Positions 12,274 through 13,785 of a DNA stretch of 64,000 bases are shown here, one piece after another. Numbering within the stretch: the stretch's first letter is position 1; each line of letters opens with the position of its first letter. The translations under genes were made by a program, and so were the position numbers. The stretch is from Armatimonadota bacterium (GTDB taxonomy: Bacteria > Armatimonadota > DTGP01 > JAKQQT01), in the NCBI GenBank assembly GCA_036504855.1, contig DASXUL010000075.1, positions 12,655-76,654 on the forward strand. Direction: 5' to 3'. The notes beneath the pieces were generated by a model that saw only the letters and a list, made by a program, of their open reading frames with translations, did no database searches and had not been told where the DNA came from.

Positions 12274-13512
12274 TCAGTCCCCCATCACGGCGGCGCGGTC
12301 GCCGGAGAGCTCGTAGAAGCGCTCCTCCAGCCCGCTGTGCGCGGTGAGGATGTCGAACTTCGGGATGCCGACCTCGGCCAGCGTGCAGTCCAGGTAGGCC
12401 TCGTCTCCGGTGACCATATGCGTGGACTCGTAGGCGCGGCTCTCGCCGCACGTCGGGCAGCGGGCCTCCCGCTCCGTCAGTCGTCCCAGGGCCCGGAAAA
12501 CGGGTTCGGCTGTGCCGCAGGCGGCGCAACGGAAGGCTGTGACGATTTCCCGCACGAACCCCAGCGCGGCTTCCGGGCCAAGATCCGCTCGGGCCCGATC
12601 CAAACAGGTTCGCAACGTCGTGCCCGATGCCGTCCAGTCTGTTTCCTGGATGTGCCCCCAGGTTTCGTGGCTGAGGCAATCCGGCTTGCGGCGATAGGTG
12701 ACGGTGAACGAGTCGTGCGTGGCGCCGTTGAAGAAGAAGCCTTTCCCTTCCAGGGTGGGCAGGTCCGCCCGGCCGTGCAGCAGTTTCAGCGCTTCCTGGC
12801 ACTCGATGCCCGCGATGACGCTGCCGGTGGTGGGAGTTGTAGGCACCTTCCCCTCCAGCATCTGATCGCGCGACAGCAGCGCGCAGGATCTGCGCTGGGC
12901 CAGCATCCGGTAGTCCGCCTCGTTCATGGTGCACTCGTAGCACGCGCCGTCCGGCGGCACGAAGACGCGCGCCATGCCGTTCAGCACCTCAATGGCGCCA
13001 TCCACGAACGGCCGCGTCAGGCGCCAACAGCACTGGTTTACCCACAGACGCGCCTCGCGGTTATCCAGCCCGCCGATCACCACGTCCACCGCGCGGAAGA
13101 CGCCGAGCCCGACGTCGTGGATGACGTTTCCGGCATAAGCGTGGACATGCGTATCCGGGTTGATATCCATCGCCGCGCGCGCGGCCGCCTCGGCCTTCAA
13201 CTGCCCTTCGTCTCGTGCGCGGTAGAGGACAGATCGGGAAAGGTTGCTGTTTTCCACGCGGTCCATATCCACGAGGAACACATAGCCGATGCCCAGCAGA
13301 GCCATGTTCTTCAGGATCTCATTGCCCAACGCGCCGGCGCCGACCACCATCACGCGGGAGGTGCGCAGGCGTTCCTGATCCCACCAGGGGATCAGGCGCA
13401 GACGGCTGTAGCGGTCTTCCTCTTCGGCGCCCCCATCCAGCGTCACGGAGATGGGCGCGGCGGGCGCCGGAGGAGGAAGCGCGCCCAGCGTGATATCGAG
13501 GTCGTCTGCCAT
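12274..13512 (-). CDS. E1-like ubiquitin-activating enzyme (ThiF/MoeB/HesA adenylation domain) with C-terminal CxxC pairs
   Basis: 'VMVVGAGALGNEILKNMALLGIGYVFLVDMDRVENSNLSRS' is the nucleotide-binding Rossmann motif of E1/ThiF. Its ATG directly abuts the Ubl stop (TGAATG) and has a GGAG RBS inside the Ubl 3' end. Confidence 0.8.
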   Translation of the reverse strand: MADDLDITLGALPPPAPAAPISVTLDGGAEEEDRYSRLRLIPWWDQERLRTSRVMVVGAGALGNEILKNMALLGIGYVFLVDMDRVENSNLSRSVLYRARDEGQLKAEAAARAAMDINPDTHVHAYAGNVIHDVGLGVFRAVDVVIGGLDNREARLWVNQCCWRLTRPFVDGAIEVLNGMARVFVPPDGACYECTMNEADYRMLAQRRSCALLSRDQMLEGKVPTTPTTGSVIAGIECQEALKLLHGRADLPTLEGKGFFFNGATHDSFTVTYRRKPDCLSHETWGHIQETDWTASGTTLRTCLDRARADLGPEAALGFVREIVTAFRCAACGTAEPVFRALGRLTEREARCPTCGESRAYESTHMVTGDEAYLDCTLAEVGIPKFDILTAHSGLEERFYELSGDRAAVMGD

Positions 13513-13785
13513 TCAGGCTCCGGCGGTGATTTCGGGCAGCAGGCGGAGCACATCGTCGTCCTTCACGCCAGCGTCCGCCAGAGTCTGCTCGTCGGTAAGC
13601 TGCATGCCGGAGGCTTTGTGCTGAAACTTGTAGCTCAGCAACTGGCCTCCGGGGTCGGTTGAGGGAAGTTGCATCATCTCAACGAGGCGGGCGATGATGC
13701 GGCGCACGGGCGCGTCGTCCGGCAGGGTCGCCTGTTGCTCCTTGTTGCCGGTGGCATCCAAGATGGTTACGTTCACTTTGCCCAT
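13513..13785 (-). CDS. ubiquitin-like beta-grasp protein (Ubl), C-terminus ...LRLLPEITAGA
   Basis: 90 aa. The pattern KVNVTIL...TLADAGVKDDDVLRLL...AGA parallels the ubiquitin/ThiS/MoaD fold. It is translationally coupled to E1. Confidence 0.6.
   Translation of the reverse strand: MGKVNVTILDATGNKEQQATLPDDAPVRRIIARLVEMMQLPSTDPGGQLLSYKFQHKASGMQLTDEQTLADAGVKDDDVLRLLPEITAGA

Follow-up and report, generated by a model that had tools for sequence, protein, structure and literature searches.

A predicted one-residue propeptide on the ubiquitin-like protein of an Armatimonadota Ub/E1/E2/RING/JAB gene cluster

Precursors of the eukaryotic ubiquitin-like proteins (Ubls), including UBA52/RPS27A, NEDD8, SUMO, UFM1 and ATG8, carry C-terminal extensions or fusion partners, and a protease exposes their terminal Gly; in UFM1 (-VG) and ATG8 (-FG) a single Gly follows a non-Gly residue. 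In prokaryotes, clusters combining ubiquitin (Ub), E1, E2, RING and JAB genes were reportedly predicted by computation by Burroughs, Iyer and Aravind in 2011, and we take the Pfam family Prok-RING_1 to stem from that work. Here we describe such a cluster in a 64,000-nucleotide (nt) stretch of Armatimonadota DNA (contig DASXUL010000075.1, positions 12,655 to 76,654; hereafter the window), in which a Ubl gene directly precedes an E1 gene and its product ends in Ala-Gly-Ala.

Two studied systems are functionally closest to this locus, the Type II Bil operons and the ubiquitin operon of Caldiarchaeum (C. subterraneum). In the BilABCD operon of Ensifer aridi, which is of Type II, BilA ends in Gly97-Ala98 and the JAB peptidase BilC of the same operon cuts between the two residues; in the E1 active site, Ala98 takes the position of ATP, whose binding it sterically blocks (PMC10557695, Chambers et al.). 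Type II BilA proteins share a universally conserved Gly that is followed by 0–9 non-conserved residues (PMC10557695). In C. subterraneum, ubiquitin is made with a nine-residue propeptide, and this pro-ubiquitin stays refractory to E1 as long as an Rpn11 homologue (CsRpn11) has not removed the extra residues (PMC5654768). CsRpn11 favours small P1′ residues, and a penultimate Ala slows its cleavage (PMC6043591). The literature searched contained experimental work on Bil, Bub, CBASS and Caldiarchaeum, and none on the bacterial RING-containing Ub/E1/E2/RING/JAB class.

The window locus resembles the Type II Bil operons in its single β-grasp Ubl with a conserved Gly and a variable tail, which is exactly one Ala in both E. 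aridi and the window. Unlike the Bil E1, which is composed of inactive and active adenylation domains and an inserted helical CYS domain, the window E1 has 412 amino acids (aa) and one adenylation domain, and lacks both the CYS insertion and the inactive adenylation domain. The window E2 has the canonical HPN...Cys arrangement, whereas Bil has a CEHH motif, and the window contains four RING proteins, a serine protease and membrane-anchored JABs, unlike Bil. None of the PADLOC models, BilA and BilB included, matched the window Ubl or E2; the E1 matched BilD weakly (2.4e-9 over ~115 residues of the Rossmann region), and the JABs matched generic JAB (CBASS-type) models only, and weakly. Membership among the Bil operons was rejected on these profiles together with the single-domain E1.

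With the Caldiarchaeum operon the window shares the clustering of the same five component classes, a single-domain E1 and a JAMM peptidase as candidate for removing a C-terminal propeptide. The archaeal modifier has Gly-Gly followed by nine residues, whereas the window family has Ala-Gly followed by none to many. The window JABs and RINGs also differ in that they are integral to the membrane and carry LysM, TPR-like or CD225 domains; the RINGs are of the Prok-RING_1 type, and the host is a bacterium. Judged by its gene content, the cluster most likely belongs to the class of Burroughs 2011. The invariant Ala-Gly end, the very wide range of fused partners and the membrane anchoring of JABs and RINGs are specific to the family. 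Its Ala-Gly end is similar to the -VG of UFM1 and the -FG of ATG8; eukaryotes mostly process precursors with cysteine-protease deubiquitinases and ubiquitin-like proteases, whereas the window candidate is a JAMM metallopeptidase.

The C terminus of the Ubl and its relatives

The Ubl is encoded on the minus strand, and the elements at the end of its gene are listed below, with the single codons taken from the reading of the coding strand.

13513–13785, minus strand: putative pro-Ubl gene, 90 aa, a ubiquitin-type β-grasp modifier by open reading frame (ORF), Pfam YukD, AlphaFold2 (AF2) and Foldseek
13519–13524, minus strand: codons of Ala88-Gly89, the invariant Ala-Gly and predicted mature C terminus; Gly89 corresponds to ubiquitin Gly76
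13519–13521, minus strand: Gly89 codon
13516–13518, minus strand: Ala90 codon, predicted one-residue C-terminal propeptide and P1′ of the cleavage site; position +1 is variable in relatives
13513–13515, minus strand: Ubl stop codon TGA

The ORF ends in ...DDDVLRLLPEITAGA and the stop (PEITAGA), with no Gly-Gly, as an earlier note on this DNA had read it. The product is identical to the database cluster P0001, which comes from an Armatimonadota metagenome-assembled genome, and the AGA terminus is also present in other relatives, for example P0026. For both reasons the terminal Ala90 is not a sequencing slip.

The Ubl passes the gathering score of the Pfam family YukD (PF08817; 1.8e-12, 48.3 bits against a cut-off of 27) and weakly matches ubiquitin and Rad60-SLD. 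Its AF2 model, computed like that of the E1 as a separate chain, has a predicted local distance difference test score (pLDDT) of 92.1 and a β-β-α-β-β layout. The top Foldseek matches are ubiquitin variants, C. subterraneum ubiquitin (6fno_D), the bacterial Bil Ubl (8tyx_A), SUMO and NEDD8, at template modelling scores of ~0.7. Ubiquitin is also the best match by sequence among solved structures, and phmmer aligns residues 59–88 of the Ubl with residues 46–75 in the C-terminal half of ubiquitin. Ala88 therefore lies opposite ubiquitin Gly75 and Gly89 opposite Gly76, and Ala90 is one residue past the end of ubiquitin. The window protein is most likely a pro-Ubl with a one-residue propeptide, and the predicted scissile bond is the one between Gly89 and Ala90. 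The computed monoisotopic masses are 9713.0 Da for residues 1–90 and 9641.96 Da for residues 1–89; loss of the N-terminal Met would reduce the two by the same amount.

Relatives were collected in several ways. A word-indexed search gave 577 Ubl homologues, and a profile search with the Ubl against 1.84 billion cluster representatives gave 1201 hits. Back-translated E1 peptides matched 161 genome loci at the species level, of which 80 were kept for synteny counts. The kept loci and the Ubls bearing the motif R-x-x-x-E-x-x-A-G come from Armatimonadota, Clostridia, Planctomycetota and Acidobacteriota, and 298 unique sequences with this motif were pooled for the tail statistics. The metagenome-assembled genomes concerned derive from anaerobic digesters and gut samples.

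The consensus terminus of the first (closest) 200 Ubls is D-V-L-R-L-Q-P-E-I-T-A-G, and all 200 share D(−11), R(−8), E(−4), A(−1) and G(0) without exception. The alignment of ortholog C termini proposed in the earlier note thus finds the Gly conserved, and the doubt raised there, that orthologs may have no conserved Gly near the end, clearly falls away. Among the pooled Ubls the stop codon comes exactly at the Gly in 115 of 298 (39%), and a non-conserved tail of 1 to >300 residues follows it in 183 (61%). The tail is a single residue in 30 (R in eight, S in six, A, T and C in three each, and others), 2–12 aa in 86, 13–79 aa in 47 and at least 80 aa in 20, and no residue is conserved at position +1. 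Ubls at least 83% identical to the window protein have the tails A, R, T, C, FVS, a duplicated RPEITAG, or none. The duplication is seen in P0004 (96 aa), where the tail after the conserved Gly repeats the last seven residues and gives two consecutive candidate sites of cleavage and activation.

The comparison indicates that the tail turns over fast and the A-G stays fixed, and an invariant terminal Gly with everything beyond it variable is the signature expected of a processed, activated terminus. Judged by the alignment, the mature end is Ala-Gly rather than Gly-Gly, a trait of the whole Ubl family. The alternative offered in the earlier note, conjugation through an unusual terminus, found no support, as no residue is conserved after the Gly; it would hold only in the sense that the mature end is Ala-Gly instead of Gly-Gly.

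Among the long-tailed Ubls, whole proteins, real domains included, are joined directly after the A-G. These Ubls could free their Gly only if an endoprotease cut them. Of the 20 fusions of at least 80 aa, 15 have Ala at +1 and so show the same Gly-Ala pair as the window, which agrees with the preference of CsRpn11 for small P1′ residues (PMC6043591). Three Clostridia loci (L017:3346-3936, L020:950-1567 and L025:5177-5980) encode proteins of 196–267 aa in which Ubl-PEITAG is fused in frame to Zn_Ribbon_1 and two transmembrane (TM) helices, recalling the eukaryotic Ub-RPS27A, and fusions of the zinc-ribbon and TM type are also found among the representatives (P0248, P0259, P0265, P0267, P0277 and P0326). 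In P0258, P0275, P0280, P0290 and P0298, the Ubl A-G is followed by Ala and a protein with a lipoprotein-type signal peptide and lipobox (e.g. ...LILSLSGC...); a cut after the Gly would unmask the signal peptide of these lipoprotein-like fusions. P0252 (169 aa, Pfam ThiF 2e-17) and P0312 (154 aa) are apparent in-frame Ubl-E1 polypeptides without a stop; both end at contig ends and are either real fusions or assembly errors, and they show Ubl-E1 co-synthesis to be tolerated in the family and not to be the rule.

The terminal Gly is replaced in two Ubl domains, those of P0310 (434 aa, PEITAK, fused to JAB-TM-LysM) and P0314 (182 aa, PEITAE, followed by a coiled coil and LysM). Such a Ubl, part of the peptidase itself, would be neither cleavable nor conjugatable.

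Predicted maturation and conjugation

The genes that would serve the Ubl surround it on the same strand.

12274–13512, minus strand: E1, 412 aa, with one ThiF-type adenylation domain, crossover-loop Cys210 and a C-terminal CxxC...CxxC zinc ribbon domain
11231–12235, minus strand: JAB-2, with an N-terminal JAMM peptidase, one TM helix (residues 200–218), a Pro/Ala linker and LysM; candidate Ubl-processing or deconjugating enzyme
10048–11217, minus strand: JAB-1, with an N-terminal JAMM peptidase, one TM helix (residues 225–243) and a C-terminal domain that is helical and weakly TPR-like; also a candidate for the processing enzyme
14731–15237, minus strand: E2, 168 aa, with UBC fold, H86-P-N and Cys99 (Pfam UQ_con 7e-11)
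13847–14730, minus strand: trypsin-like serine protease of the HtrA/DegP type (Pfam Trypsin_2 1.1e-33), which has a signal anchor and one further TM helix and whose cytoplasmic tail ends in DDLDIELK; its start codon is uncertain, as the upstream part of the long ORF overlaps the E2
9390–10004, 8591–9376 (with MshEN and CD225) and 7753–8556, minus strand: three Prok-RING_1 membrane proteins, candidate E3s by Pfam and TM helices
15442–17010 (start approximate), minus strand: fourth Prok-RING_1 protein, the first gene of the cluster (Pfam Prok-RING_1 6.9e-10), with C-terminal TM helices

JAB-2 matches Pfam JAB (1.6e-11) and LysM (5e-9), and JAB-1 matches Prok-JAB (6.9e-9) and JAB (1e-8). Both keep an intact JAMM motif, E53...H117-T-H-x7-S-x-x-D in JAB-2 and E68...H132-T-H-x7-S-x-x-D in JAB-1, and the best PDB matches of JAB-2 are Rpn11 (5.6e-8) and CsRpn11 (6fjv, 2.6e-7). 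The E1 has a single Pfam ThiF domain (5e-54, residues 38–279); its best PDB matches by sequence are the active adenylation domains of UBA7/UBA1 (7e-31), with MoeB/ThiF lower (1e-18 to 1e-17). In the E1 model (pLDDT 88.3), the N-terminal 30 residues are disordered (pLDDT <50 for residues 1–13) and the C-terminal zinc-ribbon domain is well folded. The crossover loop, short and of low confidence, carries the invariant Cys210 and no inserted domain. Foldseek matched this model with ThiF, UBA3, MoeB and UBA5, and MccB is also among its structural neighbours. Invariant positions of the E1s are G58xG60A61xG63, D82, K106, D150, C191xxC194, C210, C279/H282, C329xxC332 and C352xxC355. The PDB matches of the E2 are the eukaryotic E2s Ubc4, Ubc13 and UbcH5.

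It is probable that the pro-Ubl is matured at the bond between Gly89 and Ala90 by a JAB of its own operon and then conjugated through an E1-E2-RING pathway. One of the two membrane-anchored JAMM/JAB metallopeptidases, JAB-2-LysM or JAB-1, encoded 1–3 kb downstream, would make the cut. The E1 would adenylate Gly89 and take the Ubl onto Cys210 as a thioester; it is most likely homodimeric, like enzymes of the ThiF/MoeB/UBA5 type. From there the Ubl would move on to the UBC-type E2, at Cys99, and be directed to target lysines by the Prok-RING proteins in the membrane. The JAB peptidases probably reverse conjugation too. Because the peptidase would strip any residues after the Gly, selection would not act on where the stop codon lies, and no tail, short random tails or whole fusions would therefore result.

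Support for maturation comes from the invariant A-G, the natural fusions, the alignment of Gly89 with ubiquitin Gly76, the intact JAMM motifs, the conserved synteny, and the precedents of Bil and Caldiarchaeum. Together they argue strongly, on comparative grounds, for the JAB trimming put forward in the earlier note; its range of one to three residues narrows to Ala90, the only residue that needs to be removed.

Several points weigh against maturation by a JAB. One C-terminal residue could fall to a housekeeping carboxypeptidase. Both JABs are membrane-anchored, and their access to the soluble Ubl is assumed. Bulky +1 residues (R, E, Y and L) occur in relatives, unlike the tolerance of CsRpn11. 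A penultimate Ala slowed CsRpn11 cleavage (PMC6043591), and the window JABs must therefore be adapted to A-G. In addition, metagenomic tails hang on ORF calls and the representatives may over-represent long forms, which makes the tail fractions given above approximate.

Of the other explanations, the one that survives best, though we consider it unlikely, is that a general carboxypeptidase, an aminoacyl-trimming activity or the trypsin-like protease of the operon removes Ala90, and that the JABs act in deconjugation only. A single residue has to be removed, the serine protease is kept in 50 of 80 loci, and 39% of relatives need no processing, which implies a further conserved task for the JABs. 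However, tails of 13 to >300 residues and whole-protein fusions call for an endopeptidase specific to the bond after A-G, and this is precisely what JAB/JAMM enzymes do in Bil and Caldiarchaeum. The trypsin-like domain, flanked by the signal anchor and the TM helix, is therefore predicted to be extracytoplasmic, and on this ground the operon protease was rejected as a maturase.

The Ubl might instead be a non-conjugated adaptor of the YukD/EsaB type, its conserved C-terminal motif serving as a binding epitope and the Ala being irrelevant. Like YukD/EsaB, the window Ubl is a β-grasp protein; YukD is its best Pfam family, and 'EsaB/YukD family protein' is its database name. YukD occurs in ESAT-6/FtsK-ATPase neighbourhoods and is reported as not conjugated (PMC1779556), and the few relatives in which the Gly is replaced (P0310, ...ITAK; P0314, ...ITAE) are fused to JAB-LysM or LysM. 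The neighbourhood speaks for a different role: the Ubl is clustered in conserved synteny with an E1, an E2, four RINGs and two JABs, and a Pfam scan of the ~11-kb cluster and its flanks found E1, E2, RING, JAB, protease and FHA neighbours and no ESAT-6/WXG100 secretion machinery. Moreover, the structural neighbours are ubiquitin, CsUb, BilA, SUMO and NEDD8, and the invariant terminal Gly with a variable remainder marks a processed, activated terminus. We therefore regard this adaptor role as very improbable, and a YukD function in type VII secretion was rejected on the gene neighbourhood and the terminus.

Less probable still is that the full-length ...AGA form is active and that the E1 adenylates the C-terminal Ala or another non-glycine terminus. 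This would fit a Ubl without Gly-Gly, and MccB, a structural neighbour of the E1, adenylates non-Gly termini. However, residue +1 is absent in 39% of relatives and variable in the rest while the preceding A-G is invariant, ubiquitin Gly76 pairs with Gly89 and not with Ala90, and in the structure of the Bil E1 with its Ubl, the corresponding additional Ala keeps ATP from binding (PMC10557695).

A MoaD/ThiS-type sulfur carrier was also rejected: the protein ends in Ala-Gly(+Ala), the cluster includes an E2, RINGs and JABs, and by sequence the E1 is closer to UBA7/UBA1 than to MoeB/ThiF. No MoaE, ThiG or rhodanese partner is found among the Pfam matches of the cluster.

The junction between the Ubl and E1 genes

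The coding strand reads GCC GGA GCC TGA ATG GCA across the junction.

13510–13515, minus strand: TGA-ATG stop-start junction, 0-nt spacer, same frame; not conserved in relatives
13510–13512, minus strand: E1 start codon ATG, by coding-strand reading
13518–13521, minus strand: GGAG, putative Shine-Dalgarno-like tetramer for the E1, 5 nt upstream of the ATG

The direct, in-register TGAATG junction described in the earlier note is thus present, with 0 nt between the two genes. The E1 start is credible because the upstream in-frame stop is the Ubl TGA, GGAG lies 5 nt ahead, and D-L-D-I-T-L (residues 4–9) recurs in orthologous E1 N termini. The GGAG consists of the Gly89 codon and the first base of the Ala90 codon, which places the extra Ala codon within the ribosome-binding region of the E1. 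In the maturation model, the stop codon would be free to drift, and in the window such drift may have given GGA-GCC-TGA-ATG, with the Gly and Ala codons doubling as the ribosome-binding site of the E1.

The order of the two genes is fixed, the Ubl being directly upstream of the E1 on the same strand in 80 of 80 loci, whereas their spacing and frame are not. Junctions were scored with the E1 start taken as the ATG, GTG or TTG nearest the Ubl stop in the E1 frame, which makes the classes approximate; 77 were scorable and three were not. The genes overlap in 27 of the 77 (typically ATGA or TAATG), all out of frame, lie 1–5 nt apart in 13, 6–40 nt apart in 26 and 41–200 nt apart in 7, and are separated by another gene in 4. 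The spacing ranges from −45 to +1243 nt. An exact 0-nt spacing was found in none of the 77, making the abutment unique to the window, and the 19 in-frame junctions are no more than expected by chance. In the closest relatives (L001 and L002) the Ubl ends in GGA-TGA and the E1 ATG overlaps it out of frame. Within the window cluster the Ubl-E1 spacing of 0 nt is the tightest; the other junctions measured have 13–61 nt within the cluster, and the two outermost have 204 and 673 nt.

A plausible reading of the TGAATG junction is ordinary translational coupling, which does not imply a 1:1 output of Ubl and E1. Modifiers normally have to be more abundant than their E1. The stoichiometric Ubl:E1 expression suggested in the earlier note is not borne out by the relatives, which keep the order and not the spacing or frame and in four loci have another gene in between. 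That TGA-ATG is a recoding site, at which stop read-through makes a Ubl-E1 fusion that fixes a 1:1 stoichiometry or presents the Ubl tail in cis, is scarcely credible: stop and start abut in one frame and P0252 and P0312 encode Ubl-E1 polypeptides without a stop, but abutment occurs in 0 of 77 relatives and an in-frame arrangement at chance level, 27 junctions overlap out of frame, the GGAG makes ordinary re-initiation sufficient, no fusion is found among the top 120 E1 (392–449 aa) or Ubl (89–106 aa) clusters, and P0252 and P0312, ending where their contigs end, could be assembly errors.

The cluster, the membrane and the wider family

The cluster, as defined by Pfam scans and a hydropathy scan, runs on the minus strand from ~17010 to 5937, in the order Prok-RING_1 protein, E2, trypsin-like protease, Ubl, E1, JAB-2, JAB-1, three Prok-RING_1 proteins and an FHA protein with six predicted TM segments, which closes it. 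All five component classes (Ub/E1/E2/RING/JAB) are found in one conserved cluster in the window and in relatives; of the 80 related loci, many of them cut by contig ends, 72 have a JAB, 66 a RING protein, 61 an E2 and 50 the serine protease. The Ubl, E1 and E2 are predicted to be soluble, whereas both JABs, the four RING proteins and the protease are predicted membrane proteins. This distribution, with the LysM of JAB-2 predicted to be extracytoplasmic, suggests that the whole cascade is organised at the membrane and has an envelope-linked function. Directly beyond the cluster, on the plus strand at 17182–20825, lie ORFs that by eye, from their translations, are CheY-type receiver-like (17182–17631) and CheA-type histidine kinase-like (18216–20825).

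An acidic motif, D-[ILV]-D-[IL]-x-[LF], recurs at protein termini across the cluster, in the E1, JAB-2, JAB-1 and the protease.

13486–13503, minus strand: E1 residues 4–9, D-L-D-I-T-L (in MADDLDITL), an acidic β-strand-like motif in the disordered N terminus
~12181–12198, minus strand: DVDLDITL at the JAB-2 N terminus
~11185–11202, minus strand: DDIDIRL at the JAB-1 N terminus
~13853–13870, minus strand: DDLDIELK at the protease C terminus, directly before the stop

In relatives the motif is the penultimate element of 16 of 49 protease C termini (L002–L062), lies near or at 12 of 66 E2 C termini, and is found in some RING and JAB proteins. The sequence is reminiscent of a SUMO-interacting motif (SIM) and may serve as a docking strand for the Ubl or a scaffold.

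Each JAB is anchored in the membrane and has an extracytoplasmic domain, LysM or TPR-like, and for this reason a gating of Ubl maturation by envelope signals is conceivable. Only tentatively, and with far more doubt than confidence, we suggest a broader picture in which the bond after A-G is a general release-and-activation switch run by the JABs, which would mature the Ubl and at the same time free the partner fused to it (nothing, Ala, zinc-ribbon membrane proteins, Ubl-masked lipoprotein precursors or the E1). Maturation, and hence the RING-directed cascade at the membrane, would be gated by envelope signals, and the acidic motif (here D-[ILV]-D-[IL]-x-L), carried by the E1, both JABs, the tail of the protease and some of the E2s, would bring the machinery together as a SIM-like docking strand.

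One extra Ala and an abutting stop-start are a textbook pro-Ubl arrangement with close experimental precedents, and add little by themselves. What they do provide is a predicted position for the reactive residue, Gly89: constructs should end in ...PEITAG, and the predicted tryptic remnant on a modified lysine is LLPEITAG, +794.454 Da. They also bear on annotation. Hundreds of conjugation-type Ubls are named 'EsaB/YukD family protein' or 'uncharacterized ubiquitin-like protein YukD' (P0001, P0002, P0075, P0093, P0117 and others), and the E1s are annotated in databases as molybdopterin/thiamine biosynthesis adenylyltransferases; given the gene neighbourhood, both labels are probably misleading. 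The surrounding system is of more interest than the single Ala. With 1201 Ubl cluster representatives and 161 species-level E1 genome hits, it appears to be a widespread bacterial cascade, whose components score best against eukaryotic ubiquitin, UBA1/UBA7, UBC E2s and Rpn11, and which, by the predicted topology of its proteins, is built around the membrane.

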